DNA of 64,000 bases from Mobula hypostoma (GCF_963921235.1 NC_086097.1:34722001-34786000); one strand, 5' to 3'. Positions 3,140 through 44,137 are shown, counted from the stretch's first letter. Notes: a model not told the origin generated them from the letters alone. Translations and numbers: made by a program.

Positions 3140-3258
3140 CTGAAGATGGGTCTCAGCCTAAATTGACTGGTTATTCATTTCCATAGATGCTGCCTGAACT
3201 CCTGAGTTCCTCCAGATTTTGTGTGGGTTGCTTTGGATTTCCAGTATCTGCAGACTTT
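3140..3258 (+). mobile_element. Old, degenerate PLE 3'/hammerhead-tail fragment; target of insertion A
   Basis: ctgaagatgggtctcagcctaaattgactg...catagatgctgcctg...tttccagtatctgcagacttt resembles the young PLE tail and resumes after 6922. Confidence 0.65.
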
Positions 3259-3281
3259 GCAGCATCTATAGGAAGAGGCGC

Positions 3282-3317
3282 AGTCGACGTTTCAGGCCGA
3301 GACCCTTCGTCAGGACT
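3282..3317 (-). ncRNA. Minimal type I hammerhead ribozyme (PLE A, minus arm)
   Basis: Reverse complement reads agtc CTGACGA agggtctcggcct GAAA C GTC gact. Confidence 0.85.
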
Positions 3318-3611
3318 AACTGAAGGAAGAGTGAGTAAGGGATTTGAAAGCTGGAGGGGGAGGGGGAGATGCAAAATGATAGGAGAAGACAGGAGGGGGA
3401 GGGATAGAGCCGAGAGCTGGACAGGTGATAGGCAAAAGGGGATACGAGAGGATCATGGGACAGGAGGTCCGGGAAGAAAGACGGGGGGGGGGGTGACCCA
3501 GAGGATGGGCAAGAGGTATATTCAGAGGGACAGAGGGAGAAAAAGGAGAGTGAGAGAAAGAATGTGTGCATAAAAATGAGTAACAGCTGGGGTACGAGGG
3601 GGAGGTGGGGC

Positions 3612-5011
3612 CTAGCGGAAGTTAGAGAAGTCAATGTTCATGCCATCAGGTTGGAGGCTACCCAGACGGAATATAAGGTGTTGTTCCTCCAACCTGAGTG
3701 TGGCTTCATCTTTACAGTAGAGGAGGCCGTGGATAGACATGTCAGAATGGGAATGGGATGTGGAATTAAAATGTGTGGCCACTGGGAGATCCTGCTTTCT
3801 CTGGCGGACAGAGCGTAGATGTTCAGCAAAGCGGTCTCCCAGTCTGCGTCGGGTCTCGCCAATATATAAAAGGCCACATCGGGAGCACCGGACGCAGTAT
3901 ATCACCCCAGTCGACTCACAGGTGAAGTGATGCCTCACCTGGAAGGACTGTTTGGGGCCCTGAATGGTGGTAAGGGAGGAAGTGTAAGGGCATGTGTAGC
4001 ACTTGTTCCGCTTACACGGATAAGTGCCAGGAGGGAGATCAGTGGGGAGGGATGGGGGGGACGAATGGACAAGGGAGTTGTGTAGGGAGCGATCCCTGCA
4101 GAATGCAGAGAGAGGGGGGGAGGGAAAGATGTGCTTAGTGGTGGGATCCCGTTGGAGGTGGCGGAAGTTACGGAGAATAATATGTTGGACCCGGAGGCTG
4201 GTGGGGTGGTAGGTGAGGACCAGGGGAACCCTATTCCTAGTGGGGTGGTGGGAGGATGGAGTGAGAGCAGATGTACGTGAAATGGAGGAGATGCGTTTAA
4301 GAGCAGAGTTGATAGTGGAGGAAGGGAAGCCCCTTTCTTTAAAAAATGAAGACATCTCCCTCGTCCTAGAATGAAAAGCCTCATCCTGAGAGCAGATGCG
4401 GCGGAGACGGAGGAATTGCGAGAAGGGGATGGCGTTTTTGCAAGAGACAGGGTGAGAAGAGGAATAGTCCAGATAGCTGTGAGAGTCAGTAGGCTTATAG
4501 TAGATATCAGTGGATAAGCTGTCTCCAGAGACAGAGACAGAAAGATCTAGAAAGGGGAGGGAGGTGTCGGAAATAGACCAGGTAAACTTGAGGGCAGGGT
4601 GAAAGTTGGAGGCAAAGTTAATAAAGTCAACGAGTTCTGCATGCGTGCAGGAAGCAGCGCCAATGCAGTCGTCGATATAGCGAAGGAAAAGTGGGGGACA
4701 GATACCAGAATAGGCACGGAACATAGATTGTTCCACAAACCCAGCAAAAAGGCAGGCATAGCTAGGACCCATACGGGTGCCCATAGCTACACCTTTAGTT
4801 TGGAGGAAATGGGAGGAGCAAAAGGAGAAATTATTAAGAGTAAGGACTAATTCCGCTAGACGGAGCAGAGTGGTGGTAGAGGGGAACTGATTAGGTCTGG
4901 AATCCAAAAAGAAGCGTAGAGCTTTGAGACCTTCCTGATGGGGGATGGAAGTATATAAGGACTGGACATCCATGGTGAAAATAAAGCGGTGTGGCCCAGG
5001 GAACTTAAAAT
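3612..5011 (-). CDS. 5'-truncated but uninterrupted PLE ORF: RT, Cys linker and GIY-YIG endonuclease (probably Neptune-type)
   Basis: RT motifs MDVQSLYTSI, GVAMGTRMGPSYA and RYIDD; linker CKRNKCYTC; endonuclease GVIYCVRCSRCGLLYIGET...RFAEH...VATHF; no stop over ~465 codons. Confidence 0.9.
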
Positions 5012-6487
5012 ACCTCGACACTGTTTTATCACCCCTTGTTCAATCCCTTCCGACCTATGTTCGTGACACTTCTCACGCTCTTAAACTTTTCGATGATTTT
5101 AAGTTCCCTGGCCCCCACCGCTTTATTTTCACCATGGATGTCCAGTCCTTATATACTTCCATCCCCCATCAGGAAGGTCTCAAAACTCTACGCTTCTTTT
5201 TGGATTCCAGACCTAATCAGTTCCCCTCTACCACCACTCTGCTCCGTCTAGCGGAATTAGTCCTTACTCCTAATAATTTCTCCTTTTGCTCCTCCCATTT
5301 CCTCCAAGCTAAAGGTGTAGCTATGGGCACCCGTATGGGTCCTAGCTATGCCTGCCTTTTTGTTGGGTTTGTGGAACAATCTATGTTCCGTGCCTATTCT
5401 GGTATCTGTCCCCCACTTTTCCTTCGCTATATCGACGACTGCATTGGCGCTGCTTCCTGCACGCATGCAGAACTCGTTGACTTTATTGCCTCCAACTTTC
5501 ACCCTGCCCTCAAGTTTACCTGGTCTATTTCTGACACCTCCCTCCCCTTTCTAGATCTTTCTGTCTCTGTCTCTGAAGACAGCTTATCCACTGATATCTA
5601 CTATAAGCCTACTGACTCTCACAGCTATCTGGACTATTCCTCTTCTCACCCTGTCTCTTGCAAAAACGCCATCCCCTTCTCGCAATTCCTCCGTCTCCGC
5701 CGCATCTGCTCTCAGGATGAGGCTTTTCATTCTAGGACGAGGGAGATGTCTTCATTTTTTTAAAGAAAGGGGCTTCCCTTCCTCCACTATCAACTCTGCT
5801 CTTAAACGCATCTCCTCCATTTCACGTACATCTGCTCTCACTCCATCCTCCCACCACCCCACTAGGAATAGGGTTCCCCTGGTCCTCACCTACCACCCCA
5901 CCAGCCTCCGGGTCCAACATATTATTCTCCGTAACTTCCGCCACCTCCAACGGGATCCCACCACTAAGCATATCTTTCCCTCCCCCCCCTCTGCATTCCG
6001 CAGGGATCGCTCCCTACACAACTCCCTTGTCCATTCGTCCCCCCCATCCCTCCCCACTGATCTCCCTCCTGGCACTTATCCGTGTAAGCGGAACAAGTGC
6101 TACACATGCCCTTACACTTCCTCCCTTACCACCATTCAGGGCCCCAAACAGTCCTTCCAGGTGAGGCATCACTTCACCTGTGAGTCGACTGGGGTGATAT
6201 ACTGCGTCCGGTGCTCCCGATGTGGCCTTTTATATATTGGCGAGACCCGACGCAGACTGGGAGACCGCTTTGCTGAACATCTACGCTCTGTCCGCCAGAG
6301 AAAGCAGGATCTCCCAGTGGCCACACATTTTAATTCCACATCCCATTTCCATTCTGACATGTCTATCCACAGCCTCCTCTACTGTAAAGATGAAGCCACA
6401 CTCAGGTTGGAGGAACAACACCTTATATTCCGTCTGGGTAGCCTCCAACCTGATGGCATGAACATTGACTTCTCTAACTTCCGCTAG
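5011..6487 (+). pseudogene. PLE RT/GIY-YIG ORF, 5'-truncated, frameshifted in the T run at ~5755-5761
   Basis: ORFs 4945..5763 and 5717..6487 together give the same protein as the minus arm, with a 6-bp in-frame deletion near 5487. Confidence 0.9.
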
Positions 6488-6779
6488 GCCCCACCTCCCC
6501 CTCGTACCCCAGCTGTTACTCATTTTTATGCACACATTCTTTCTCTCACTCTCCTTTTTCTCCCTCTGTCCCTCTGAATATACCTCTTGCCCATCCTCTG
6601 GGTCACCCCCCCCCGTCTTTCTTCCCAGACCTCCTGTCCCATGATCCTCTCGTATCCCCTTTTGCCTATCACCTGTCCAGCTCTCGGCTCTATCCCTCCC
6701 CCTCCTGTCTTCTCCTATCATTTTGCATCTCCCCCTCCCTCTCCAGCTTTCAAATCCCTTACTCACTCTTCCTTCAGTT

Positions 6780-6815
6780 AGTCCTGACGAAGGGTCTCGG
6801 CCTGAAACGTCGACT
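6780..6815 (+). ncRNA. Minimal type I hammerhead ribozyme (PLE A, plus arm); predicted cleavage after 6811
   Basis: CUGANGA core, helix II, GAAA, GUC triplet, helix I AGTC/GACT. Confidence 0.85.
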
Positions 6816-7149
6816 GCGCCTCTTCCTATAGATGCTGCTTGGCCTGCTGCGTTCACCGGCAACTTTGATGTGTGTTGCTTGAATTTCCAGCATCTGCAGA
6901 ATTCCTGTTATCTGCAGACTTTCTCGGGTTTATTCTTTTAAAGTGGGAAGCAAGGGTGCCCTCACCTGGTGATTAATAATATTACAGGAAGTATTCAGCG
7001 TAACCAAATTAATCACAGAAGAGAATGGCAAGACTATTTTAAATCGAGTGAAATATTGCTCTCTTCCTTCAGAATCACAGATGATTCTATTTCAACCCCA
7101 CATTCTCATAATGTATAAAATGGACACTTGGATTTGGAACAGTGACTAA

Positions 7150-7460
7150 TCAAAGAGTCAAATCTTGTTTAGCTTGCCCAAGTGAAATTTGTTGTTTTAT
7201 GGCAGCATTATAGTACAAAGACAAACCTGCTATAAATTACAAAATAAATAATAATGAGAAATTCATGGGTTCATGAACCAGTCAGAAATTTGCTGATGGA
7301 CGGGAAGAAGCTGTCCCTGAATTGTTGAATTGAGTCTTCAGACCCCTGTATCTCCTCCCTAATGGTAGTTTTGAGGGCATGACCCAGATGAGGATATCCT
7401 TACTGATGGACAGTCCCTCTATGGCACTGCCTCTTGAAGATCTTTGATGGGAGGGAGGGC
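7150..7460 (-). mobile_element. Old Rex1-like LINE 3' fragment
   Basis: Resembles 44140..44500 (gggaagaagctgtccctgaattg...gagggcatg). Confidence 0.5.
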
Positions 7461-8413
7461 TTTGATTTTATACAAACTATTATTTATACAATTTGTATAA
7501 TTGCTAAGTCCTCCTAAATGGTACGATAGAACAAAGCGGGGGAGAAGATCGGCTATGATTCTGTATACATACTGTATATGAATGCTACAGGCAGACACAG
7601 TGCCTCAGTCAGTAAGCCTACAAAATCACACTCTGTTAAACATCATAATGCACTTGCCATAAAAACAATTCATTTTTCTTTTCAGTGGAGTGAATTAAGG
7701 TGGAATAATTCCTTTGAAACCTGATCATTTCAAACAATTTCCATGTGTTGCTAAAACTTCTTCAGCATATCTATTTTGTGTACAAAGTGTTCTTGGCGCC
7801 ACATTGAACATATCTTGCTTTAAATGATCTGGCAGACTGAGACACATCACACGAGCAACAGCCTGATCTTGAGATTTTATTTTACAAGAAATTGAGAGGA
7901 AAAACCTGACATTCCACTTGAACCACATTTTATCCCAGGTCCACGCTAATCTATTTATTTATTTTTACTTACTCAAAGAGTGAAGGTATTTGATATAACC
8001 AGCATTTATTGTCCTGTTCGGTGCTGGTGAATCACCATTTTAAGGCAATTCAGTATAGGCATAATCCTCTGGGGTATGAAGCTTCAGGGTTTAGAATTGC
8101 GATTGATTTCAGGACTTCTAGCTGAGATTTCATCTGCTTCCGGGGTCACCTTGTTTTTGTGGCAACCAGAAGGCTTATCAGGTTGCTGATCCTACAGGAG
8201 AACTGAATGACCCTTTAAAACAAGAACCACTGCAGTCCCCTTTAACACATGGGAAGAGAATGTGAATGCCCACTTTAACGCATCGATATTGATCGTTGCG
8301 GGCCCTTTAACACATGGAGCTGCAGTTCCTTTGATAGAGTCATAGAGCTCTACAGCACAGAAACAGGCCATTTGGCCCATTGAGTCTGGGCCAAACTGTT
8401 ATTAAGCCTAGAC

Positions 8414-8463
8414 CAGGGGTTCCCAAATTTTTTATGGCATGGACCCCAGGTTGGGAATCCCTG
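8414..8463. mobile_element. 50-bp hAT-like mini-MITE
   Basis: TIRs caggggttcccaa / ttgggaatccctg; imperfect 8-bp TSD gcctagac / gctaagac. Confidence 0.55.
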
Positions 8464-8479
8464 GCTAAGACCCATCATT

Positions 8480-9925: not shown

Positions 9926-10292
9926 TCTTGACTATAGCCCTACATATCGAAACTTCTCTTAAAAACCTGGGAGCCTGTTAATATGTAATGTGTGATTGTT
10001 CCTGGGTACTTTAATACGAGGGGGAAGTTGTGGTCCTTTTAAATACACAGGTTGATTGGTTGGAGCATATTAATATCTGGGGGGGGAGTGGTTGGATGGG
10101 GTGGTGGAGTGTGTTTACTCCAAGTTCTTTTTAATCCAAGGAAGAGATTGCTTTTCTTTGAATTAATAGATCATTATTGTTTAGAGGCCTGGTAGATGTT
10201 TACTCCTGGCTTCTTTAATACAAGAGGAATAAAAGTTTGTGGTCTCTTTAACATGGGGAGAGGTGGTGAATTAATACTCCTGGCCCCTTTAA

Positions 10293-11720: not shown

Positions 11721-12029
11721 CTTTAAGACGAGCGAAGAGGATGCAGTCCTTTGAACACATGGGGAGTGAATGCATGTTTACGTAAGGTACTGTCCCTTTA
11801 CCATACAGATGATGATTGTCTGGGTCCTTTCATACCTGGTCGGTGTTCAGTCACGACCATTTTAATGTAAGTGAAAGGATTGCAGTCCGTTTAATATACG
11901 GAGAGTGAATGTCTGTGATCGTTTAAATACAAGTGGACTGAATGCTGCTAGCGCCTTTAGTAAAAGGTAAATTGCAGTCATGGAGAGCGAGAGCCTGTAA
12001 TACAAGGCCGGTTCATGGTCCGCCCCTTT

Positions 12030-15794: not shown

Positions 15795-17351
15795 TCAACC
15801 AAATGTTTCTGGTAACTGTTGATCAGTCCTGCATATTGGCTTGGAGGAATTTTAGGCCATTCCTCCTAACAAAGCTATTTTAACTCTGGGATGCTGGTGG
15901 AGTTCATTGCTTGAACTGCTTGCTTCAGGTCCTTCCATAACGTTTCTACAGGATTAAGTTCAGGACCTTAACTCAGCCATTCCAGAATGTGAAATTTCTT
16001 CTGCTTTAACCATTCTTTGCTGGACTGACTTGTGTGTTTAGGGTCGTTGTCTTGCTGCATGACCCACTTTCTCTTGACCTTCAGTTCATGGATGGATACC
16101 CTGATATTTTTCTGTAGAATTTGCTGGTACAATTCAGAATTCATAGATCCATGAATGATGGCAAGCCATCCTGGTCCTGACGTAACAAAGCAGGCCCAAA
16201 CCATGACACTGCCACCACCATGTTTCACGGATGGGATGAGATTCTAGTGCTGGAATGTAATGCTTGCTTTTTGCCCAACATTATGCTTCTCATTTAAGCC
16301 AAAAAGTTCTGTTTTGAACTCATCCGTAAACAGAACATTTCTCCAATATCCTCTGGCTTATCCATGTGGTCTTTAGCAGACTTTAGATGGGCAGCAATAT
16401 TCTTCTTGGAGAGTAGTGGCTTTCTCCTTGCAATCTTGCCATGCACACCATTGTTCAGTGTTTGCCTGATGGTAAACTCATGAACACTGACATCAGCCAA
16501 TGTAAAAGAGCCTTAACAACAGGAATTCTGCAGATGCTGGAAACTCAAGCAACACACATCAAAGTTGCTGGTGAATCAGCAGGCCAGGCAGCATCTCTAG
16601 GAAGAGGTACAGTCAACGTTTCAGGCCGAGACCCTTCGTCAGGACTAACGAAGGGTCTCGGCCTGAAACGTTGACTGTACCTCTTCCTAGAGATGCTGCC
16701 TGGCCTGCTACATTCACCAGCAACTTTGATAAAAGAGCCTTAGATGTTATCCTGAGGTTCTTTGTGATCTCCTGGACTATTACACGCCTGGAATGAATTT
16801 TGTTGGCCCTGGCGAGAGTAACAACAGTGTTGAATTTCCTCCATTTGTACACAATCTGTCTGACTGTGGATTGGTGGAGCCCAAACTCTTTAGGAATGGT
16901 TTGTGTATCCTTTTCCAGCCTGGTGAGCATCAACTACTATTTTTCCAAGATCCTCAGAAATCTCCTTTGATCGAGGCATGGCACGCTTCCAAAAACCTGT
17001 GGTGAAGATCAGGCTATGATGGTGATAGACCCGGGTTTATGTTCTTCGAGTAGGGCAGGGCCTCCCACACTCTCACGTGATAGTCATCCCATTGATTGAA
17101 ACACCTGACTCTAATTTCCCCTTTAAATGAACTGATAATCCTAGAGGTTCACATACTTTTTCTGACAAATACATGTAATATTAGATCATTTATCTCAATA
17201 AGTAAATGAAGAAGTATAATTTTTGTTTGTTATTTAATTGGGTTCTCCTTATCTAGTTTTAGGACTTGCGTGAAGTTCTGATCGCACTTTAGGTCATTTA
17301 TTCAGAAATAGAGAAAATTCTAAAGGGTTCACATACTTTCTAGCACCACTG
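15795..17351 (-). mobile_element. Tc1-like DNA transposon, degenerate, interrupted by PLE insertion E
   Basis: KHGGGSVMVWACF, QQDNDPKHTS, IARRKPLLSKKN; terminus TA-cagtggtgctagaaagt on the minus strand. Confidence 0.85.
16516..16729. mobile_element. PLE insertion E: 214-bp inverted doublet of hammerhead plus tail only
   Basis: TSD taaaagagcctta at 16503..16515 and 16730..16742; junction microhomology 'ac' at 16648..16649; hammerhead at 16611..16646 (-), GUU triplet. Confidence 0.9.
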
Positions 17352-22000: not shown

Positions 22001-23434
22001 TTTTAGTTGATTGACTAAAAATTTACCGGATTTATCACCATGAATATAAAACCAGCTCTTACTTTCGAGAAGTTGGTGTTCAATTGGATGAGTGGAAATA
22101 AGGTCAAACTTAGTTTAAAGTTCCACTCACTTCTTGTACAGTTCTGGATTTTTGGTCTGAGCATATAGTTGGTTGGTTGCTTTAATTTGGTTGACCAGAT
22201 CTAATCGCTCTGTAGAGGATTTTCTTTTCAAATTCACAGTATATGAAATTATTTGACCCCTTGGATATGCTTTCATGGCATCCCAGACAACCTGAGTTGA
22301 GGTTTCAGATGACATGTTAATATCTAAAAAAAAAGTGTTATTTGGTCCTTCATAAAATTTACAAAATCATTATCCGACAACAGGGTCGGATTAAAACGCC
22401 AGTGTTTATTCATTTGAGGGAGACCAGGAAGAAATATGGACAGGGTAACTGGGGCATGATCCGAAATCAATATACTCTCATAATCACAAGAGCGAACAGA
22501 TGGAATCAGCAGATTATGGATTTAAAAAAATAATCAATTCTAGTAAAAGTATGATGGACATGTGGAGAAAAAAAAGAGTAATCTCTCTCACTTGGATGAA
22601 GAGAACGCCAAACATCAGAGATCAGAGATACCATAATTAGAAAGGAAAGACTGAATTGATAAAGCAGATTTACTTGGTAGTCCAGGAACAGAGGATGATC
22701 GATCCATAGCTAGATCTAACCAACAGTTAAAGTCACCGCCCAATTTAAGAGAATATAAGCTCAGGTCAGGCAATAAAGAGAAAAAACGATCAAAAAACTC
22801 CACATCATCCAAATTGGGGTCATACAGGTTAGCCAAAACTACCCTAGTATTATATAATTTCCCAGAAACAATAATAAAACAACCATTTGTACCAGATATT
22901 TGGCTGTGAAGCTCAAAAGGAACATTTTGATTTATAAGAATAGAGACCCCCCCCCCCCCGGCTTTAGCCGGAAAAGTAGAATGGAAGTGCTGCCCCACCC
23001 ACCTTGACATGAGACGGGAATTATCAGAACTACCAAAGTGTGTTTCTTGCAAAAAAGCAATTGCAGCTTTGAGCTGCTTAAGATGTGAAAACAATTTCCT
23101 CCTTTTAACAGGATGGTTCAAACCCCTAGCATTCCAGCTTATAAAATTCAATGGACTCACCTTTGTCATTTAAAAAAACATGGAGAGTAGTAGGCATGAG
23201 CAAAATCAAACAAACAACAGCTCTGGGGCAAAAACATAAAACAGGAGAATCAGGACAGAAATATGTCCTGAATAACTAAAGATCCTATAAATGCTATTGG
23301 CAATAGAGATCCCTGCCCCCCCCCCCCCCCCCCAGATCCCACAACAAGAAAGCTATCTAAGATCAGCAGCAAGCTGTTGGGAAAAAAACCACCCCAAAAC
23401 CCAACTTCCAGGTTCTTAATATCAACATAAGCTC

Positions 23435-24081
23435 GTAAACACGAGGAATTCTGGAGATGCTGGAAATTCAAGCAACACACATCAAATTTGCTGGTGAATG
23501 CAGCAGACCAGGCAGCATCTCTAGGAAGAGGTACAGTGGACGTTTCGGGCTGAGACTCTTCGTCAGGACTAACTGAAGGAAGAGCTAGTAAGAGATTTGA
23601 AAGTGGGAGGGGGAGGGGGAAGATCCAAAATGATAGGAGAAGACAGGAGGGGGAGGGATGGAGCCAAGAGCTGGAGAGGTGATTGGCAAAGGGGATATGA
23701 GAGGATCATGGGACAGGAGGCCCAGGGAGAGGGAAAGGGGGGAAGGAGAAAAAAAACCCAGAGGATGGGCAAGGGGTATAGTCAGAGGGACAGAGAGAGA
23801 GAGAGAAAGAATGTGTGTATATAAATAAATAACAGATGGGGTACGAGGGGGAGGTGGGGCATTAGCGGAAGTTAGAGAAGTCAATGTTCATGCCATCAGG
23901 TTGGAGGCTACCCAGACGGAATATAAGGTGTTGTTCCTCCAACCTGAGTGTGGCTTCATCTTTACAGTAGAGGAGGCCGTGGATAGACATGTCAGAATGG
24001 GAATGGGATGTGGAATTAAAATGTGCGGCCACTGGGAGATCCTGCTACCCAATCTGTTATTTATTTATATACACTCATATA

Positions 24082-24149
<68 letters not shown>

Positions 24150-24682
24150 TTTCTCTCTCTCTCTTTTCTCTCTCTCTCTCTTTTCTCTCTCTCTCTCTCT
24201 TTTCTCTCTCTTTTCTCTCTCTCTCTCTCTTTTCTCTCTCTTCTCTTTCTCTCTCTCTCTCTCTCTTTTCTCTCTCTCTCTCTCTTTTCTCTCTCTCTCT
24301 TCTCTCTCTCTCTCTTTTCTCTCTCTCTCTCTCTCTCTTCTCTCTTCTCTCTCTTCTCTCCTCTCTCTCTTCTCTCCCCCCCTCTCTCTCTCACTATACC
24401 CCTTGCCCATCCTCTGGGTTCCCCCCACTTTTCCTTCTCCTTGGGCCTCCTGTCCCATGATCCTCTCGTATCCCTTTTGCCTATCGCCTGTCCAGCTCTT
24501 GGCTCTATCCCTCCCCCTCCTGTCTTCTCCTATCATTTTGGATCTCCCCCTCCCCCTCCAACTTTCAAATCTCTTACTCACACTTCCTTCCGTTAGTCCT
24601 GACGAAGGGTCTCAGCCCTAAACGTCGACTGCACCTCTTCCTAGAAATGCTGCCTGGCCTGCTGCGTTCACCAGCAACTTTG
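23435..24682. mobile_element. PLE insertion D: inverted doublet (minus arm 23435..~24046, plus arm ~24046..24682) in the L1 inter-ORF region
   Basis: TSD atcaacataagctc at 23421..23434 and 24683..24696; mutated hammerheads at 23535..23570 (-) and 24595..24630 (+). Confidence 0.9.
24083..24392 (+). repeat. Interrupted (CT)n microsatellite expansion, ~310 bp
   Basis: Directly visible; the other arm has only a short (GA)n run at ~23792..23806. Confidence 0.95.
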
Positions 24683-26809
24683 ATCAACATAAGCTCCATT
24701 TGTTAACAATTCAAAAACCAGAAAAATTACGCACTACAAATTAGAATTATACTTAGAGAAAAGAAAAACAATTCCACCAAAATGTATTAAGCTTAACTCA
24801 AAGTAATAGTCCAAAAGAAAAGATATGAACTAAGAAAGACTCAAACAAAGTTTACCCAGTAACCTACCCACGAGAAACTATGGATAAAAATTCACTGACT
24901 TGGAAAAAGAAAAAAAAGTACTTGTCCATCATTTTGACTAATCAAACCAAGTCTGAGGAAATGGAAGTAGCAGGGAGACTTTCGATAAATTTCTGAGCTT
25001 CTGTAACCAAGTTAAACCACGTTTTTTCTCCGGTAGCAAGAGTTATTCGGAGACGAGCTGGAAAACGCAGAGAGGGCCCGAGTCCACGATTGTAGAACTC
25101 TTTCATGACTCCTTTATATTCTGCTTGTAGACTCAGAACTTGGGGAGTATAATCCTCGACAATACAGATAGATTGACCCTTGTACAGGTTTCCCCCGCCA
25201 TCTGAAGGTAGAGCGTTCCTATGAAACGGTTCGTAAGCCAGAAGGTCGTAAAGCGCAGAAGCAATTACCATTTATTTATATGGGAAAAATTTGTGAGCAT
25301 TTGCAGACCCAAAAATAACCTACCAAATTGTGCCAAATATCACATAAAACCTAAAATAACAGTAACATATAGTAAAAGCAGGAATGATATGATAAGTACA
25401 CAGCCTATATAAAGTAGAAATACTTCTCTACAATCATTGCCTGCACTGTTCTCCGTAGCGAAAATCTCACCAAGCTCTCTCGGCAGAAACACTCTCTCCA
25501 GTAAACCTTTAAGCTATGAAGCTGCCAAATCATACCAAATAACACATAAAAATACACAGCCTATATAAAGTAGAAATAATGTGTGTACAGTGTAGTATCA
25601 CTTACCGGAATCGAGAAGTCAGCGCTGAGTGCAGTTGAGTCATCGCAGGCTGGGTGGTGCAGTGGCCCCCACCCTCCAGGCCGCCGACTGATACATTGCT
25701 GCAAAGCATGCAGGGGTACAGCGGTGGCCGGGACGCACCCAGCACATCTTTAAGAGAAAAGCCAAAATAAACAAGCTAATTAATTAGGTGCCGCCCGGCA
25801 CGTAAATGTCGGCCCAGATCAGAGGCGACGCAATCGGTAATTGCCTCTGATCTGGGCCGACATTTACATGCCGGGCGGCACCTAATTAATTAGCTTGTTT
25901 ATTTCAGCTTTTTTTCTTAAAGATGTGCTGGGTGCCTCCTGGCTATGGCTGCATTCTCCGCGAATCGGTATCTGTCCGCGGCCCAGGGGTTGGGGTGATG
26001 GGACACTGGGCTGTCATCTCATCGTCGTCTGTTTCCATTAGGGCAGGCAGGTCATCTTCTATGTCTGCCTGCCTCGATGTCGAAGGTCGAGGTTCGTCGT
26101 CTGCTGTGGCTGATGTGGAAGGCTTGCTTGACTGTTAGCCTTGCGATTTTTCTATCATACAGTTCTTCGTAAGTACTCAAACATCTTGCAAATATGCCCT
26201 ACACCGACGTACCCTTTCAAAATTAAAGTCGTACTTTTCTGCAATTATTGCAGTGAAAATCTCACGCAGTTGCTTCACGTTCAGTTCCTGGACGACTTCA
26301 CTTTCGGTCCACTCACTACTGCATTCGGTTTCGATTGCTATCCTTTCCTCTTCCAATTGCATCAGCTCTTCATCTATCAGTTCTTCGTTATGCAATGCCA
26401 AAACCTCTTCAACATCATCTTCGTTAACTTCCACAAGCCAAACTCACTTTGTCCTTACTTCGTTCACCACGATCAAAACGTTTAATTATGTCTAGTTTTA
26501 CGCTAAGTGTAGCACCCTTACAAGCTCTTTTAGGCTTTTCTGATACCTTAAACTCATCTTGCAAACGGACGCTCACAGGCACATGTTTAAGCAATGCCGG
26601 CTAGAATGCCGTTCCGAATCCGGGGGAGAGCAGCTGCTCGGGGCGCACGCTGCCTTTTTTCGTAACAGTGAAAACACCTTCTATTAGCGAAAACAGGGAA
26701 CTAATGTAGGTAAACAACAGGAATTCTGCAGATGCTGGAAATTCAAGCAACATACATCAAAGTTGCTGGTGAACGCAGCAGGCCAAGCAGCATCTATAGG
26801 AAGAGGCGC

Positions 26810-26845
26810 AGTCGACGTTTCAGGCCGAGACCCTTCGTCAGGACT
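26810..26845 (-). ncRNA. Minimal hammerhead ribozyme (PLE B, minus arm)
   Basis: Same motif as 6780..6815. Confidence 0.85.
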
Positions 26846-28018
26846 AACTGAAGGAAGAGTGAGTAAGGGATTTGAAAGCTGGAGGGGGAGGGGGAGATGC
26901 AAAATGATAGGAGAAGACAGGAGGGGGAGGGATAGAGCCGAGAGCTGGACAGGTGATAGGCAAAAGGGGATACGAGAGGATCATGGGACAGGAGGCCTAG
27001 GGAGAAAGACGGGGGGGGGTGACCCAGAGGATGGGCAAGAGGTATATTCAGAGGGACAGAGGGAGAAAAAGGAGAGTGAGAGAAAGAATGTGTGCATAAA
27101 AAGGAGTAACAGCTGGGGTACGAGGGGGAGGTGGGGCCTAGCGGAAGTTAGAGAAGTCAATGTTCATGCCATCAGGTTGGAGGCTACCCAGACGGAATAT
27201 AAGGTGTTGTTCCTCCAACCTGAGTGTGGCTTCATCTTTACAGTAGAGGAGGCCGTGGATAGACATGTCAGAATGGGAATGGGATGTGGAATTAAAATGT
27301 GTGGCCACTGGGAGATCCTGCTTTCTCTGGCGGACAGAGCGTAGACATGCCCTTACACTTCCTCCCTTACCACCATTCAGGGCCCCAAACAGTCCTTCCA
27401 GGTGAGGCATCACTTCACCTGTGAGTCGACTGGGGTGATATACTGCGTCCGGTGCTCCCGATGTGGCCTTTTATATATTGGTGAGACCCGACGCAGACTG
27501 GGAGACCGCTTTGCTGAACATCTACGCTCTGTCCGCCAGAGAAAGCAGGATCTCCCAGTGGCCACACATTTTAATTCCACATCCCATTCCCATTCTGACA
27601 TGTCTATCCACGGCCTCCTCTACTGTAAAGATGAAGCCACACTCAGGTTGGAGAAACAACACCTTATATTCCGTCTGGGTAGCCTCCAACCTGATGGCAT
27701 GAATATTGACTTCTCTAACTTCCGCTAGGCCCCACCTCCCCCTCGTACCCCAGCTGTTACTCCTTTTTATGCACACATTCTTTCTCTCACTCTCCTTTTT
27801 CTCCCTCTGTCCCTCTGAATATACCTCTTGCCCATCCTCTGGGTCACCCCCCCCCGGTCTTTCTCCCTAGGCCTCCTGTCCCATGATCCTCTCGTATCCT
27901 CTTTTGCCTATCACCTGTCCAGCTCTCGGCTCTATCCCTCCCCCTCCTGTCTTCTATCATTTTGCATCTCCCCCTCCCCCTCCAGCTTTCAAATCCCTTA
28001 CTCACTCTTCCTTCAGTT

Positions 28019-28054
28019 AGTCCTGACGAAGGGTCTCGGCCTGAAACGTCGACT
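28019..28054 (+). ncRNA. Minimal hammerhead ribozyme (PLE B, plus arm)
   Basis: agtcctgacgaagggtctcggcctgaaacgtcgact. Confidence 0.85.
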
Positions 28055-28641
28055 GCGCCTCTTCCTATAGATGCTGCTTGGCCTGCTGCGTTCACCAGCA
28101 ACTTTGAACTAATGTAGGTCTTTCATAACAGTGAGGTTTCGTAAAACGAACGTTCGAAAAGCGGGGAACACCTGAATTCCAACTTTCCTCTCTGACGTGC
28201 TTCCATAATCAAAAGGTTTTTCACCTTACAGCGATGAAAACAGAGAATTAATGGGTGTAGCCTATGGCCCAACTCCGGCTTAGGCGTAAAAGTACGGTGG
28301 ACTCGGAAGAATATCATTCCCAAAAATTTCACAAAGTAATGTAGAAAAAAATTCAACTGGGGATTCACTTTCGATAGCCTCTGGCAAGCCGAGGATTTGT
28401 AGATTTTGACGTCTGTTGCGACCTTCCAGATCCATAACTTTGGATATTAACTTGCTGTTATAATCCCTCAAGCTGGAGCAAGCGGTTCCCAAATCGTGAA
28501 AGCAGCGTTTTAAATCATCGGTAGCAGACTCAAGAAGAGAAAGACGTTTGGCATGAGCCTCCACTTTGGAATTAATTTGATCTAATTTGGATTCCAACGA
28601 ACCGAAAGAAGTCTTAAATTCAGACTTGAGTTCGAATACTA

Positions 28642-30889: not shown

Positions 30890-31430
30890 ATAAGAATGTT
30901 TACCAGGATGCTGCCTGCATTTGAGAGCATGTCTTATGAGGAAAGGTTGTGAGAACTTGCACTTTTCTCTTTGGAATAACAGGATGAGAGGTAACTTGAG
31001 AGAGGTAGATAAGATTATGAGAAGCATAGGGATAGTGGATAGTCAGGACATTTTTTCCCCCAGGGCAGCAATGACCAATACCAAAGGACATCTGTTTAAG
31101 GTGAAAAGTTTAGGGGAATTGTCAGGTAATTTTATTCTTACACAGAGTGGTGGATGCCATGGTTTGTGGTAGTGGCTGATACAATATAATGTATAAAAGA
31201 CCCTTTACATAGGCACGTGGATGTAAGAAAACTGGAAAGTTATGAACAGGAGAAAATCTGCAGATGCTGGAAATCTAAGCAACATAAAATGCTGGAGGAA
31301 CTCAATAGACCAGGCAGCATCTATGGAAAAGAGTAAGCAGTCGACATTTCGAGCTGAGACACTTCATCGAGACTGGGGTTATGAGCTGTATCGGGGGGGG
31401 GGTTAGATTAATTATTCTGTGTTCTAATGA
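30890..31430 (+). mobile_element. CR1 3' fragment with an older PLE hammerhead-tail fragment inserted at ~31245..31376 (-)
   Basis: CR1-like C-terminal peptide; insert ...gcagtcgacatttcgagctgagacacttcatcgagact flanked by gttatga repeats. Confidence 0.6.
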
Positions 31431-35930: not shown

Positions 35931-37640
35931 TATATACGAAGAGATTACATGGAGCTAGAGCCAGAAAATATTTCCTCAGGCAAAGCACAATTGACACTAG
36001 GCATAATCTTCCAAGTAAGATGGTGGAGGCAGGAAGTCTGGAGCTACTCGGGAGGTAATGGTTTGCTGTAAGGGAAGTCCACAGATTTTCCAAGAATGGG
36101 TGAAAAATGTAGTCTCTCCTTTCATACTGATCTTTGCACGTCATCTAATGTAGGAACACAAGTGTGGTACCGGAAATGGCCTTTTAACAAGAACATTGTG
36201 AACATCCAATCAGTAGACATTTTGTCACTCATGAATGATGGGCACATTCCGTTCATTGCAAGTGCAGTGATTCACAGATAATATGAGAACGCTGGTGAAA
36301 GGTTAGAGAATATTATTTAGATCTCTAAGACAGCTGTGAAAGCTTAACAGATGAAATCAGGTGCAACATTGTCATTAGTGATGTGGGAAATGAGCTGATG
36401 TAAAACGGATACAGCTCACACCATCCCACTAGGCACTAGCCCTGACCTGACCTCTCAGAGATGCTGAATTTCTTCATACCTTGTTTGAAATTGTCATTGT
36501 AAACCACCTTTGGGCTTCCTTTGATTCACAGCAGACCTCATTCTGCTAAATGCTGTCCTCTGTAGCTGACTTGTTTTGAGGCGTGATCTCCATCAGTCTG
36601 AGCCTGGAACACCTGTAAGCATCCAGTGTTACCCACAAATACTGGGCACATTCTTTCAAGGATCGTGTTCCTCTATATTCTTTGGTCCCAAGTGACCAGT
36701 GATTTTATGCAGTGCATTTGGTGCTCATGATGTGATCTTCCAATTAAGGAGGAATCAAATGCAGATCAAGTGACACCTTGCAGAATTCCTCCATTCACTC
36801 CTTCAGGCTGATTCTGAACTTCCAGTTGAACGGCACTTTAATTTTCCATCCCACGCCCATTCAAACCTCCTCGTCTTTAAACCCTTGATATATGCCAAAC
36901 TAACTTAACAGAATACTATTTTCTTTTCCAGTTAGGCGTGTGATAGCCTTTAGCTCTTGGCATTAATTTCAGCATACTCAGATTACGAACCTTTCCAGTC
37001 TTGCATCTCCCATTCCAACATTGTTTAGTGTTTGTTTCTTCCTGCTTACATCCACTTCAGTCTCTCTTGCTCTCAACACTGTCCCACCACCATTGCTTTC
37101 TGTGTAACTTAAAACCTACTTATTCTAGCTTTTAACTTATAAATTGCTAACGTCTCCCTGGTCTGATGAAAGATAATCGGCCTGAAATGCTTCCCCTGTG
37201 GTCACCCCCCACATTTGCTGCACAAAATATAAACATCCCAGGCCATAAAAGTGCACACTCCTCATCAGTAAGTGCTTCCACTACAGTATCTTGAATAACT
37301 TTACATAAATGTAGGCATTTCTTACTTGTATTTCTTAATTATATTAGACTGCAGTTTCAAAGTGACATAATCACCTCAGAACTCACTCAGACTTCTTCCG
37401 TAATTTCTCAGTGAAAGTTCAACATTATGATTTAGGAAGCCAAGGAGTATGGGGAGAAGTGGGAAAGGTGCTGTCAAGACTAAATTTGGATCAGCCATAA
37501 ATTGTCAATAATCTTATTGAGGGGCCAATCAGCATACTGGTCATCCATTTCCACACCTTATCACGACAGTGTCATTGACCTATTGGCATCGCATACCTTT
37601 TGCACACAGGTCACCATAACAGGTAAGTGATAGTAGCTGT

Positions 37641-38254
37641 GTCCGCCAGAGAAAGCAGGATCTCCCAGTGGCCACACATTTTAATTCCACATCCCATTCC
37701 CATTCTGATATGTCTATCCATGGCCTCCTCTACTGTCAAGATGAAGCCACACTCAGGTTGGAGGAACAACACCTTATATTCCGTCTGGGTAGCCTCCAAC
37801 CTGATGGCATGAACATTGACCTCTCTAACTTCCGCTAATGCCCCACCTCCCCCTCGTACCCCATCCATTATTTATTTATATACACACATTCTTTCTCTCT
37901 CTGTCCCTCTGACTATACCCCTTGCCCATCCTCTGGGTTTCCCCCCCTCCCCCTTTTTCTTCTCCCTGGGCCTCCTGTCCCATAATCCTCTCATATCCCT
38001 TTTGCCAATCACCTGTCCAGCTCTTGGCTCCATCTCTCCCCCTCCTGTCTTCTCCTATCGTTTTGGATCTCCCCCTCCCCCTCCCACTGTCAAATCTCTT
38101 ACTAGCTCTTCTCTCAGTTAGTCCTGACGAAGGGTCTCGGCCCGAAACGTCGACTGTACCTCTTCCTAGAGATGCTGCCTGGCCTGCTGCGTTCACCAGC
38201 AACTTTTATGTGTGTGGCTTGAAATTCCAGCATCTGCAGAATTCCTCGTGTTTA
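37641..38254 (+). mobile_element. PLE insertion F: single-arm 5'-truncated copy (older subfamily) with hammerhead at 38120..38155
   Basis: TSD tgatagtagctgt at 37628..37640 and 38255..38267. Confidence 0.9.
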
Positions 38255-41003
38255 TGATAGTAGCTGTCTGGTGTCCAGGTATGAGTTCATTCTAAACTCT
38301 GTTGCTTGTGTTTCAACCCACAGCATGTCCTGTGAACCTATGACCTCTGTGCTTGCTGGCTCACACAGGCTCCCAGTTAAGTAACATCACCATTTTAAAA
38401 TTCTCATCTCTTAAATCCCTTCAATGTCTCAGCTTTCCCCTTCTCTATGACCCTATGAGATTTGAGTATTTCCATAGTTGAATTTAAATGCTTCAGCTAC
38501 GGCAGCTGAACTGAATAAGCTGATCTTCCTTTTAAAGCCTCTGTAACTGTCGACATTTTTACACCTTTGAGAAGTTCTTTTAGATCTACATTGTGCACAC
38601 ATTAGTGTTTTCTTCTCTTGGATCTTGTAGTACTTGAGACACTTATGTTAAAGGGGCTATAGAAGTGAAAGCTGGTGAATTTACTCTGTTTGGAATAAGT
38701 GAAGAAAAGCAAGGGAAGGAGAGGTATGTGGAAGAATTGATAAAACAAGATCAGAAAATGAGGGAAGGTAAGAAAATAGCAAAATATTGCTGGAAATGTG
38801 ACAGTAGATAATGTTGGAAATCTTTAGTAGGACAGGCAACATCTGTGGAAAGAGAAACCATAGTATTTTGAATGAATAAATTTTCAGCAGTTTTTTGTTC
38901 ATTAGATATAAATCCATGTTTAAATTATAAAGATGGGATTACCAAGAGAGATGCTGTTTTAAAGATGGATGTGAATATACTCTTTTTGGGTTCCAGCTGG
39001 GTACAGGTATCCCCGATGAAGATGGCAGAGTTTGTCATTGTTATATTCAATACTTGTACTTGGCGGGAAGCGCGAGAAGAGTTTATTCGTCATGTATGCC
39101 GGGAAAGCACTAGATCCTTTTTTTCAAAGATAGTCACATTAGCCTTTTCAGATGTGTGGCCTATAAATAACTTCCCTCAGGAATTTTGGGTTGTATACGG
39201 CATAGGGCATGAGTTGAAAAACAAAAGAAATGCAGGTGCTAGAAATCTGAAATGAAAACAGAAAAATGCAGTAAATCAAGCTGTATATATAGAGAACTAA
39301 AAGTTACCATTTCAAGTCATCACGTGACTGTAATTTTGATACATTGAACTATTTACACCTGGATTTATATGATAGCTTCTGAAAATCAATGCACATCAGT
39401 CAGTAGTTCACTGTCAATTAGCAATTTTATAGTTTTGTCATTCAGGCTAACACAATTAATTTGTACTTGGCCATGATCTACAAACAGAATAGGGTAATAT
39501 CCAGAACAGATCTATTTGTGAAGACAACCATTCCTTGAGAGAAAATGGGTTTTGGTGTAGGGATGAGTAATTGTATCAGGTCACAGCGGATGCCTGACTT
39601 TGTGATTTCTTCTTTTAATTAAGGGAATTGATTATCTTTGAATTCATCCCTTTCACTTCAGGCTTTAACATTTAAATTGGCACCCCTCACCACGGCAACA
39701 CTGTATAGCAGGAAGACAGAATATGTAGCACTGTTGTGTTACATACTATCTATCATTTATGGTTCATTTAGCAAACTACTGAACACTACACTGTTTATCA
39801 TTAGTAATTCCAAAAAAGAGTGGGAACCTCTCTCACCTCCATCTGTCAGACTGCCTGGGAAATTGGCCCACAATGTGTTTTATTGGAGAACTGATGAAAT
39901 GTCCATAACAAAGCATGTACAACAAACAGACATTTTATATTAGTTTTCCTTGGCTTTCCTTCACATCTGATATCAGAATAAAAGGAAGCCATATTGAAAA
40001 TAATTATTATCTATGAACACCTTTTTTCTGAGCCATTTTACAAAGTCAACATGATGATGTGAATTGGGAGAGTGCTAACAGTGACTCTGAGCTATGATTG
40101 CCATCCTGATGAAAAATACCAAATCCCTATTTTTGCCAGTACAAGTGAACTAAGAAAATGCAAGATATGACATCGATCAGATCTAAAAAAAAAATTGGTA
40201 TTTTGTTACAGAGTCCTCAGCCAGGAAGAATAAAATGGATTAATCCTGTTTCACCCCTAACAGATACTGTAATTCTGGCCAGTTGTCTCAATTTGGGTTT
40301 TGCCATATGGAAATAATGCCTGAAATTAAATGGAAAACAAAATATTAAAGTAATTGGAATAGAAAGCAATGGAAAGGCAGTATATCAATCAGCAATAAAT
40401 TCAGATGTGTGCCCACCATCAAAACAGATGACTGAAGTAAGAACGGACAAGTTAAGTTAGAAAAACTAAAGAGAAAGAGAACAAGGAATAGGATCAATAA
40501 TGTTGCCATATATAAGAAAAAATGGACATTTCTAGTTGCAACCAAATTTTGACTGAAGTCTACTGGTGGTTGACAATATCTCATTTATATATTGACTTGA
40601 ACATTGAAAAAAATAACCTCAGGCATTCCAAAGGAGAATTACCCAATGTTGTCACACAAGAAAAAGAGATATCTACTAGTGAATGGGATAAAGCAGTAAA
40701 AAAAGGTATCTTTACGGATGGGATTTTTGGCAGACTAGGGAACCATGTAAAATGTAAAAACAATATTGTAAACTAATGTTAAAGGTAGTGTAAATGCTTG
40801 TGCGCAGTAATGTTATTCTTATTTTTGACCACTAGATGGCGCATACAATTTTGGTTAGAACTAAGTTTGCCCAGCTTTAGATTCAGAATTAGATTTATTA
40901 TACGTAAACAACAGGAATTCTGCAGATGCTGGAAATTCAAGCAACATACATCAAAGTTGCTGGTGAACGCAGCAGGCCAAGCAGCATCTATAGGAAGAGG
41001 CGC

Positions 41004-41039
41004 AGTCGACGTTTCAGGCCGAGACCCTTCGTCAGGACT
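41004..41039 (-). ncRNA. Minimal hammerhead ribozyme (PLE C, minus arm)
   Basis: Same motif as 6780..6815. Confidence 0.85.
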
Positions 41040-42199
41040 AACTGAAGGAAGAGTGAGTAAGGGATTTGAAAGCTGGAGGGGGAGGGGGAGATGCAAAATG
41101 ATAGGAGAAGACAGGAGGGGGAGGGATAGAGCCGAGAGCTGGACAGGTGATAGGCAAAAGGGGATACGAGAGGATCATGGGACAGGAGGCCTAGGGAGAA
41201 AGACGGGGGGGGGTGACCCAGAGGATGGGCAAGAGGTATATTCAGAGGGACAGAGGGAGAAAAAGGAGAGTGAGAGAAAGAATGTGTGCATAAAAAGGAG
41301 TAACAGCTGGGGTACGAGGGGGAGGTGGGGCCTAGCGGAAGTTAGAGAAGTCAATGTTCATGCCATCAGGTTGGAGGCTACCCAGACGGAATATAAGGTG
41401 TTGTTCCTCCAACCTGAGTGTGGCTTCATCTTTACAGTAGAGGAGGCCGTGGATAGACATGTCAGAATGGGAATGGGATGTGGAATTAAAATGTGTGGCC
41501 ACTGGGAGATCCTGCTTTCTCTGGCGGACAGAGCGTAGATGTTCAGCAAAGCGGTCTCCCAGTCTGCGTCGGGTCTCACCAATATATAAAAGGCCACATC
41601 GGGAGCACCGGACGCAGTATATCACCCCAGTCGACTCACAGGTGAAGTGATGCCTCACCTGGAAGGACTGTTTGGGGCCCTGAATGGTGGTAAGGGAGGA
41701 AGTGTAAGGGCATGTGTAGCACTTGTTCCGCTTACACGGATAAGTGCCAGGAGGGAGATCAGTGGGGAGGGATGGGGGGGACGAATGGACAAGGGAGTTG
41801 TGTAGGGAGCGATCCCTGCGGAATGCAGAGAGAGGGGGGGAGGGAAAGATGTGCTCAGTGGTGGGATCCTGTTGGAGGTGGCGGAAGTTACGGAGAATAA
41901 TATGTTGGACCCGGAGGCTGGTGGGGTGGTAGGTGAGGACCAGGGGAACCCTATTCCTAGTGGGGTGGTGGGAGGATGGAGTGAGAGCAGATGTACGTGA
42001 AATGGAGGAGATGCGTTTAAGAGCAGAGTTGATAGTGGAGGAAGGGAAGCCCCTTTCTTTAAAAAAGGAAGACATCTCCCTCGTCCTAGAATGAAAAGCC
42101 TCATCCTGAGAGCAGATGCGGCGGAGACGGAGGAATTGCGAGAAGGGGATGGCGTTTTTGCAAGAGACAGGGTGAGAAGAGGAATAGTCCAGATAGCTG

Positions 42200-43732
42200 G
42201 CCGACCTATTGTCTCAGCTTGCTCCTGCCCCACCGAACTCGTTTCTGCATACCTCGACACTGTTTTATCACCCCTTGTTCAATCCCTTCCGACCTATGTT
42301 CGTGACACTTCTCACGCTCTTAAACTTTTCGATGATTTTAAGTTCCCTGGCCCCCACCGCTTTATTTTCACCATGGATGTCCAGTCCTTATATACTTCCA
42401 TCCCCCATCAGGAAGGTCTCAAAGCTCTACGCTTCTTTTTGGATTCCAGACCTAATCAGTTCCCCTCTACCACCACTCTGCTCCGTCTAGCGGAATTAGT
42501 CCTTACTCTTAATAATTTCTCCTTTTGCTCCTCCCATTTCCTCCAAACTAAAGGTGTAGCTATGGGCACCCGTATGGGTCCTAGCTATGCCTGCCTTTTT
42601 GTTGGGTTTGTGGAACAATCTATGTTCCGTGCCTATTCTGGTATCTGTCCCCCACTTTTCCTTCGCTATATCGACGACTGCATTGGCGCTGCTTCCTGCA
42701 CGCATGCAGAACTCGTTGACTTTATTAACTTTGCCTCCAACTTTCACCCTGCCCTCAAGTTTACCTGGTCTATTTCCGACACCTCCCTCCCCTTTCTAGA
42801 TCTTTCTGTCTCTGTCTCTGGAGACAGCTTATCCACTGATATCTACTATAAGCCTACTGACTCTCACAGCTATCTGGACTATTCCTCTTCTCACCCTGTC
42901 TCTTGCAAAAACGCCATCCCCTTCTCGCAATTCCTCCGTCTCCGCCGCATCTGCTCTCAGGATGAGGCTCTTCATTCTAGGACGAGGGAGATGTCTTCAT
43001 TTTTTAAAGAAAGGGGCTTCCCTTCCTCCACTATCAACTCTGCTCTTAAACGCATCTCCTCCATTTCACGTACATCTGCTCTCACTCCATCCTCCCACCA
43101 CCCCACTAGGAATAGGGTTCCCCTGGTCCTCACCTACCACCCCACCAGCCTCCGGGTCCAACATATTATTCTCCGTAACTTCCGCCACCTCCAACGGGAT
43201 CCCACCACTAAGCATATCTTTCCCTCCCCCCCCCTCTGCATTCCGCAGGGATCGCTCCCTACACAACTCCCTTGTCCATTCGTCCCCCCCATCCCTCCCC
43301 ACTGATCTCCCTCCTGGCACTTATCCGTGTAAGCGGAACAAGTGCTACACATGCCCTTACACTTCCTCCCTTACCACCATTCAGGGCCCCAAACAGTCCT
43401 TCCAGGTGAGGCATCACTTCACCTGTGAGTCGACTGGGGTGATATACTGCGTCCGGTGCTCCCGATGTGGCCTTTTATATATTGGTGAGACCCGACGCAG
43501 ACTGGGAGACCGCTTTGCTGAACATCTACGCTCTGTCCACCAGAGAAAGCAGGATCTCCCAGTGGCCACACATTTTAATTCCACATCCCATTCCCATTCT
43601 GACATGTCTATCCACGGCCTCCTCTACTGTAAAGATGAAGCCACACTCAGGTTGGAGGAACAACACCTTATATTCCGTCTGGGTAGCCTCCAACCTGATG
43701 GCATGAACATTGACTTCTCTAACTTCCGCTAG
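42200..43732 (+). pseudogene. PLE RT/GIY-YIG ORF from RPIVS onward, frameshifted in the C run at ~43226-43234
   Basis: ORFs 42091..43305 and 42962..43732. Confidence 0.9.
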
Positions 43733-44025
43733 GCCCCACCTCCCCCCGTACCCCAGCTGTTACTCCTTTTTATGCACACATTCTTTCTCTCACTCTCCTT
43801 TTTCTCCCTCTGTCCCTCTGAATATACCTCTTGCCCATCCTCTGGGTCACCCCCCCCCCCGTCTTTCTCCCTAGGCCTCCTGTCCCATGATCCTCTCGTA
43901 TCCCCTTTTGCCTATCACCTGTCCAGCTCTCGGCTCTATCCCTCCCCCTCCTGTCTTCTCCTATCATTTTGCATCTCCCCCTCCCCCTCCAGCTTTCAAA
44001 TCCCTTACTCACTCTTCCTTCAGTT

Positions 44026-44061
44026 AGTCCTGACGAAGGGTCTCGGCCTGAAACGTCGACT
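44026..44061 (+). ncRNA. Minimal hammerhead ribozyme (PLE C, plus arm)
   Basis: Same motif as 6780..6815. Confidence 0.85.
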
Positions 44062-44137
44062 GCGCCTCTTCCTATAGATGCTGCTTGGCCTGCTGCGTTC
44101 ACCAGCAACTTTGATGTATGTTGCTTAGATTTATTAT

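Follow-up and report, generated by a model that had tools for sequence, protein, structure and literature searches.

The window analysed here is a stretch of 64,000 nucleotides from Mobula hypostoma (GCF_963921235.1 NC_086097.1:34722001-34786000), given as one strand and numbered from its first letter. It contains seven insertions of a very young and very abundant Penelope-like element (PLE). Five of them, designated A to E, are doublets in which two 5'-truncated copies of this one PLE lie head to head within a single target-site duplication (TSD). The other two are a clean singlet with a 13-bp TSD and a short singlet. An earlier interpretation made from the sequence alone (the sequence-only reading) had described a Penelope-like family, five of whose seven insertions in the window were 5'-truncated head-to-head doublets in one TSD, with arms that duplicate the same 3' sequence, unlike L1 inversions. 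These descriptive claims were upheld: the count is a fair one, alignment and exact flanking repeats of 11-14 bp confirmed the doublets, and the arms overlap by 48-1749 nt. All element coordinates below refer to a real full-length genomic copy, L031:6334-9850, with a unit of ~3.51 kb (ref).

Alignment to this copy revealed a minus-strand arm followed by a plus-strand arm in all five window doublets, with the same 3' sequence in both arms. Searching the window with one arm of doublet A retrieved the same family at every site listed in the sequence-only reading. In 5/5 cases one arm, referred to as the long-tail arm, ends at ref 3505-3512, and the other, the short-tail arm, ends 25-80 nt earlier at ref 3434-3482. 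Doublet A is an inverted repeat of ~1.75 kb per arm with 98-100% complementarity. Its short-tail arm (3259-5011, minus strand) covers ref 1686-3434 at 99% identity to the reference copy, and its long-tail arm (5010-6909, plus strand) covers ref 1600-3505 and holds the C-terminal part of the reverse transcriptase (RT), the GIY-YIG region, a minimal-hammerhead-like motif and the full tail. The left TSD, ATCTGCAGACTTT, occupies 3246-3258 and the right one 6910-6922. The target of doublet A is an older diverged PLE tail (3140-3257, plus strand, ~72% to ref). Doublet E comprises a long-tail arm of an older subfamily (16515 to ~16647, minus strand, ref ~3371-3508; left TSD 16504-16514) and a short-tail arm (~16648 to 16730, plus strand, ref ~3389-3465; right TSD 16731-16741). 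In doublet D, the long-tail arm (23435-24046, minus strand, ref 2898-3511, ~89% identity; left TSD 23423-23434) and the short-tail arm (24354-24684, plus strand, ref 3132-3465; right TSD 24685-24696) are separated by a CT-rich microsatellite of 307 bp (24047-24353), which may be an expansion of the element's own CT-rich stretch, or filler. The short-tail arm of doublet B (27342-28107, plus strand, ref 2696-3464; right TSD from 28106/28108) reaches 179 nt further 5' than its long-tail arm (26709-27345, minus strand, ref 2875-3512; left TSD 26698/26700-26710). The same holds for doublet C, where the short-tail arm (42197-44124, plus strand, ref 1548 to ~3476-3482; right TSD 44125-44137) reaches 670 nt further 5' than the long-tail arm (40902-42199, minus strand, ref 2218-3511; left TSD 40889-40901), the latter having 2 extra nt that read into the next unit. 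The exact flanking repeats measure 13-14 bp for A, 13 for C, 11-14 for B, 12-14 for D and 11-12 for E, the ranges reflecting bases assignable to either element or target. The clean singlet (37636-38254, plus strand, ref 2880-3510) belongs to an older subfamily, has a long end and is flanked by the 13-bp TSD at 37628-37640 and 38255-38267. The short singlet (49013-49109, minus strand, ref 3376-3472) has a short end, and its flanking repeat is imperfect and offset.

The repeated unit is 3.5 kb long and contains one open reading frame (ORF) for an RT with a GIY-YIG nuclease on its C-terminal side. One copy has an open frame of 997 aa that matched RVT_1 (E=2.6e-4, 21.2 bits; Pfam cut-off 29.6 bits) and, C-terminal to it, GIY-YIG (E=8e-4, 20.1 bits; cut-off 22.6 bits); GIY-YIG was matched at E=3.1e-4 in another copy of the family. 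The YIDD motif of the RT is readable in the translation, and 'GVIY...LLYIGET' lies at residues ~900-974 of the 997-aa frame. The closest protein-atlas clusters (score 0.98) carry HTH_animal, DUF8422, RVT_1 and GIY-YIG, and a PDB sequence search gave no match at E<=0.01. Partial tandem copies form pseudo-long terminal repeats (pLTRs). L031 carries a 134-bp direct terminal repeat with 100% identity, L033 has a 530-bp partial copy upstream as a direct pLTR, and L052 is a tandem. The ORF of L031 is split over two frames (L031 6290-7378 and 7379-9412); since the frame is uninterrupted in L032, L018 and L025, the split appears to be mutational and not a programmed frameshift. By eye, the 3' region contains CUGACGA...GAAAC-GUC; helix I has 4 bp (AGUC/GACU) and helix III is absent. 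This minimal-hammerhead-like motif would fit the minimal hammerhead ribozyme as set out in part of PMC4209133; its fold was no better than that of shuffled sequences (z = 0.46). Copies of the family are 97-99% alike, and a 43-mer from the 3' region has 52,843 matches in the genome at <=2 mismatches, compared with 0 for a control.

To the five window doublets we added four from a search with long arms, 37 probe pairs and two incidental finds, giving a set of 48. A duplicate of the L053 doublet and three rows of nested insertions (L032 and two rows of L052) were left out. Outer ends were bimodal across this set, falling at ref 3464-3483 (together with three at 3429-3434) or at ref 3505-3512, and none at 3484-3504. 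Forty-seven doublets paired a long end with a short end, one (L040) was short/short, and none was long/long. The 25 non-doublet copies comprised 16 with a long and 9 with a short end. Independent choice of the two ends predicts about 46-50% mixed doublets (binomial p about 4e-15). The two end classes also differ in precision, as 40/47 long ends lie within 4 nt (ref 3508-3511) and the short ends spread over 20 nt. In addition, short ends had on average 3.3 nt of microhomology between target and element and long ends 1.1 nt (Wilcoxon p=9e-5, 44 doublets), and the microhomology reached >=4 nt at 15/44 short ends versus 2/44 long ends. L032 and L052, which looked like exceptions to the long/short rule, are not doublets: in each case a young copy is nested in an older PLE tail.

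A TSD of 12-17 bp (median 14) flanks 44/44 tabulated doublets; one of 20 newly fetched doublets, L067, showed no TSD. Junctions between the arms have 0-14 nt of overlap or 1-26 nt of filler, apart from the 307-bp CT microsatellite of doublet D. The single TSD per doublet, together with a junction that is different in each, indicates that every doublet arose as a separate single event. Copying of doublets as units from a master doublet was rejected, because the junction positions differ in every case. The smallest members, mini-doublets, total about 170-300 bp. Among singlets, a TSD of 10-15 bp was found in 10/16. The six TSD-less 'singlets' had no hidden, very short inverted tail arm at the 5' junction; in one of them an internal stretch is directly duplicated, and another has an inverted internal piece of 15 nt.

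The two arms of a doublet are related in length as well as in sequence. Their inner ends are correlated (Spearman 0.81, n=44; 0.60 in the non-mini subset, n=17, p=0.011), the inner-end range of mini-doublets being limited by the way they were found. Inner-end differences range from 0 to 974 nt and are <=30 nt in 30/44 doublets, mostly minis. Among the 47 long/short doublets, the arm that reaches further 5' is the long-tail arm in 20 and the short-tail arm in 18, with 9 ties. Each arm therefore holds sequence absent from the other in 18/47 doublets, the long tail on one side and extra 5' body on the other. This means that neither arm was copied from the other, so two template-directed syntheses are needed in these 18. 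In L049 (C1:17.43 Mb), an internal deletion of 912 nt takes the short-tail arm from ref 2054 straight to 2967, a range over which the long-tail arm is continuous, so the two arms had different synthesis histories.

We compared alleles between arms at 18 haplotype sites taken from common polymorphisms of the family. Arms differed in 10/154 comparisons, against 45% for random pairs of 38 copies. At the 13 subfamily-marking sites there were 0/84 discordances; the division into 13 and five sites was made after the discordances had been seen. All 10 differences map to sites 2566, 3223, 3287, 3435 and 3468 and occur in 8/13 long doublets. These five sites vary within every subfamily; 2566, 3287, 3435 and 3468 are non-CpG transitions, and 3223 falls at a CpG of the major haplotype. 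Possible causes are RT hot spots, RNA editing and differences between tandem source units. By eye, doublets with discordant alleles were not more often asymmetric at their inner ends. Doublets A and C both carry T at 2566 in the plus arm only.

Genome-wide frequencies were estimated with probes. A doublet is found in this way when both arms retain the probe, and short or mutated second arms escape, so the frequencies are lower bounds. The first 100 exact places of the 43-mer contained 17 minus-plus pairs less than 2.2 kb apart and 0 plus-minus pairs within 8 kb; alignment confirmed 17/17 as doublets, which gives at least 17/83 events. A 21-mer nearer the 3' end yielded 24 tail-out and 0 tail-in pairs in its first 100 exact places, or at least 24/76 events. 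Three probes merged over C1:0-3.3 Mb identified 124 arms, with 22 tail-out pairs <=1,351 nt apart and no tail-in pair closer than 1,958 nt. Beyond this distance, 6 tail-out and 10 tail-in pairs were indistinguishable from chance neighbours, and the merged estimate is about 22-28 doublets of 96-102 events. Doublets thus account for at least about a quarter to a third (25-32%) of detectable events. They are common, and the claim that the family inserts mostly in this form was not borne out genome-wide. One mini-doublet with neighbouring fragments (L053, C1:13.257-13.267 Mb) is present twice, 3,957 nt apart and with identical structure; this pair is a local segmental duplication, not two insertions.

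From the features of these insertions, the probable explanation in our view is an asymmetric target-primed reverse transcription (TPRT) with two primers on one RNA lineage, either one RNA or sister RNAs of one locus. The element protein would cut both target strands about 10-14 nt apart, an activity demonstrated in vitro for an anole PLE only, and the stagger would become the TSD. One 3'-OH would be extended from a sharply defined internal site (the long site, ref 3505-3512) that shows little target homology and would be positioned by the protein. The other 3'-OH would anneal 25-45 nt upstream, within a 20-nt zone (the short site, ref 3464-3483), by microhomology of 0-12 nt, and its cDNA would also be made on RNA of the same source lineage, possibly on the same RNA molecule. 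Synthesis of both cDNAs would then end, often at nearby template positions, and their 3' ends would be joined, overlapping by 0-14 nt or with 1-26 nt of filler between them; each cDNA would template the complement of the other. Where the second priming gives no arm, a singlet would result. The requirement for two syntheses agrees with the extension of both target strands reported in sections of PMC11167929. A more specific proposal, which we offer only tentatively, is that asymmetry is intrinsic to the PLE integration complex and a single RNA serves as template twice, one protomer acting at the protein-positioned site and the other strand annealing 25-45 nt upstream. It is suggested by the long/short rule (47/48), the confinement of microhomology to short ends, the correlated inner ends and the common haplotypes of the arms.

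Several points weigh against asymmetric two-primer TPRT. Each of its steps is reconstructed from finished insertions in one assembly, and none was observed directly. The RVT_1 and GIY-YIG scores are under the curated Pfam cut-offs, and Rfam scans gave no hammerhead match (E up to 1 on L031 and up to 10 on the tail stretch). In the portions of PMC11167929 that deal with initiation, initiation is not homologous to the cut DNA, which predicts neither the long/short rule nor microhomology at the short end. That microhomology could instead mark a junction made last by end joining, and not priming. Short-end singlets exist (9/25 non-doublet copies), so the short start needs no partner arm. The 10 allelic discordances are recurrent hot-spot changes if one RNA was used, and otherwise imply sister RNAs. 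Finally, near-symmetric junctions fit snap-back equally well in about half of the cases, those in which the short arm is a subset of the long one.

Snap-back would involve a single cDNA, begun at one nick, that folds back and copies itself outwards, its far end then being joined to the other target end; self-priming of this kind is proposed for the palindromic junctions of PLEs in a passage of PMC3846280. Many junctions are indeed near-symmetric (for example ref 2326/2342, 2973/2995, 2533/2503 and 3071/3065), overlaps of 0-14 nt at the junction would be palindromic by construction, and both a haplotype common to the two arms and microhomology from a late end-joining step at the short end would be expected. 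Short inverted internal pieces (37-345 nt) that do not reach the tail were also found at the 5' junction in 7/40 scored long copies, as at C1:256198762-256198856 and C21:114325901-114325966, and L020 has one of 15 nt. Such pieces resemble L1 twin priming or partial snap-back. However, in 18/47 doublets the short-tail arm extends beyond the long-tail arm on the 5' side, by up to 950 nt (179 in B, 670 in C, 629 in L044 and 950 in L069), while the long-tail arm of the same doublets keeps a tail of 25-45 nt that the short arm does not have. Nor would a fold-back copy be expected to end within a 20-nt zone that lies just short of its template's end. The arm-private sequence in these 18 shows that snap-back of one cDNA is not the general mechanism, and as an account of the doublets as a whole we regard it as unlikely, although it may contribute to the near-symmetric cases.

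In another scheme, a single primer is used and the cDNA begun at the long site switches at its 3' end to an antisense molecule, either a free cDNA or an antisense transcript, and continues outwards, the short end being closed by microhomology-mediated end joining. The enrichment of microhomology at short ends only, the 20-nt spread of those ends beside the 4-nt clustering of 40/47 long ends, and the presence in some short arms of 5' sequence absent from the long arm are all compatible with such a switch, and antisense templates are discussed in part of PMC3846280. But the scheme requires a further antisense template whose end coincides with the short zone, and we found no evidence of one here; this second template would also have to come from the same source to give both arms the same haplotype. 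The published enzyme of PMC11167929 extends both strands on RNA in vitro. A template switch seems improbable to us as well.

Taken literally, the model of the sequence-only reading is symmetric two-sided TPRT as the usual mode, in which equivalent primers would start independent cDNAs on any RNA. Two tail-out arms within one TSD are what it predicts, and parts of PMC11167929 describe cutting and extension of both strands in vitro from the same start sites on both. Its core, two primers and two cDNAs, gains support from the 18/47 doublets with arm-private sequence. The symmetry did not hold. The outer 3' ends, taken to be equivalent, were long/short in 5/5 window doublets and 47/48 overall with no long/long case, against the 46-50% of mixed doublets expected (p ~4e-15), and they differ in microhomology. 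Arm lengths, said to vary independently, have correlated inner ends. Arms were never of different subfamilies (0/84 marker sites versus 45% in random pairs), and doublets make up about 25-32% of detectable events, so that symmetric TPRT as the usual mode must be considered very improbable. Assembly fold-backs or the coincidence of two abutting insertions hardly merit belief, even though inverted repeats are a known source of assembly error, because doublets go down to about 170-220 bp, shorter than any long read, 44 of them have their own TSD where separate insertions would have two, old decayed doublets (88-94% identity) follow the same rules, and no tail-in pairs exist at short range.

L1 twin priming, credited to Ostertag and Kazazian (2001), reportedly uses a second primer that starts internally on the same RNA, giving inverted and direct parts that do not overlap. 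It resembles the present case in that a second target 3'-OH primes and the inverted segment is joined by microhomology inside one TSD. The difference is that here the second primer would start at a dedicated site beside the first, so both arms duplicate the 3' end. Twin priming of the L1 type was rejected on this ground, the arm overlaps of 48-1749 nt being of the same 3' sequence.

Much closer likenesses are found among canonical endonuclease-bearing (EN+) PLEs (Penelope/Poseidon, Neptune and Nematis, including Pen2a_Av of Adineta vaga), as portrayed in parts of PMC8557442 and PMC3846280. They have in common with the present family the single ORF with RT and then GIY-YIG, the pLTRs, the heavy 5' truncation, the inverted 5'-truncated copy placed head to head in one TSD, the tail of 30-40 nt at one end only, and possibly a hammerhead-like motif in the pLTR. 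PLE insertions are described in passages of PMC8557442 as 5'-truncated and often as partial tandems, and their integration as undefined. Both papers, where they treat insert structure, present the inverted 5'-truncated copy and the 30-40 nt tail at one end as a PLE feature, and PMC3846280 there mentions TSDs of 8-10 bp, head-to-head as the most frequent arrangement and palindromes at the junction. Nothing in the present family is different in kind. What differs is that the pattern is quantified here (47/48 long/short, a median TSD of 14 bp and at least 25-32% doublets) and that the family is extremely abundant. The novelty that the sequence-only reading implied consequently falls away, the structure being a textbook PLE feature on the evidence of these passages. 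The phenomenon is a known hallmark of PLEs, and what is added to it here is modest: the long/short rule and the one-sided microhomology. Our literature search found no paper that states a two-primer model for inverted PLE copies or a strict long/short rule.

The first biochemical PLE system, from 2024, is the purified protein of an anole PLE (PAc, a Poseidon of Anolis carolinensis). The main text of PMC11167929 reports that both target strands are cut and extended by PAc in vitro and that RT begins at two neighbouring internal start sites, whose spacing corresponds to the tail; a dimer is predicted, and 'head-to-head' has 0 matches in that text. The in vitro experiment suggested by the sequence-only reading, in which the protein would nick both strands and extend both, has thus in substance been published, for the element of another species. 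As far as the start sites are described in PMC11167929, the two adjacent ones match the two end classes seen here, and they are placed within or close to a stem-loop where the ORF begins. In the present family the short start zone contains the first ATG of the ORF, and the opening codons fall in the tail (window 6822-6915, ref ~3420-3512). A predicted 8-bp stem, AGAUGCUG / CAGCAUCU, encloses a hairpin around this ATG with the short start zone in its loop and 3' side; the fold was not significant (z = -1.07). On the same portions of that paper, the two systems differ in how the sites are used: in vitro both strands use both sites without target homology, whereas the genomic doublets here use each site once and show microhomology at the short end.

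Dual minimal-hammerhead motifs on opposite strands, about 100-700 bp apart, are noted for PLE-rich genomes in part of PMC4209133, where they are read as probable truncated PLEs and, in that part, their ends are not analysed. Mini-doublets of the present family likewise place two CUGANGA...GAAAC-GUC motifs on opposite strands; they differ from the motif pairs of that account in being TSD-flanked single events that obey the long/short rule.

If the integration complex is indeed intrinsically asymmetric and uses one RNA twice, head-to-head doublets would be direct footprints of concerted TPRT on both strands, and singlets would be its abortive form. It would also provide a concrete and testable model for the PLE integration step, which reviews call undefined. 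With its tens of thousands of very young insertions from a single family, the genome offers a natural record of integration outcomes, and any model is constrained by the long/short rule, the microhomology at one end, the common lineage of the arms and the finding that the arms are not mutual copies. The window itself is an ordinary, if rich, example of the known PLE pattern.

The target sites gave few additional clues. When 23 sites were oriented by the long end, the motif was a weak and roughly strand-symmetric A-rich/T-rich bias with no asymmetry. Two independent doublets, L039 and L050 (C1:7.03 Mb and C1:17.46 Mb), share the same target, apparently one and the same site of another repeat family; the TSD is TGGGTTAGTAGGTT, and agacata precedes it. 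In both, the long-tail arm is on the same side of the target, which hints that the choice of nick for the long start may depend on the target sequence.

Tails of more diverged PLE families occur at window 31245-31374 and 57097-57170 (75-84% to ref), so several PLE lineages with a similar 3' end coexist in the genome. Young copies were found repeatedly inside the tail region of older PLE copies (window 3140-3257, L032 and L052). Doublet A interrupts the older tail between its short and long zones, L032 is in the older short zone (L032 ~1-60 and 3404-3461), and L052 lies near ref 3430 (492-542 and 4297-4325). These nested positions suggest that the nuclease is directed to DNA copies of its own element's tail. 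Homing of the Penelope endonuclease to its own tail sequence has reportedly been seen before.

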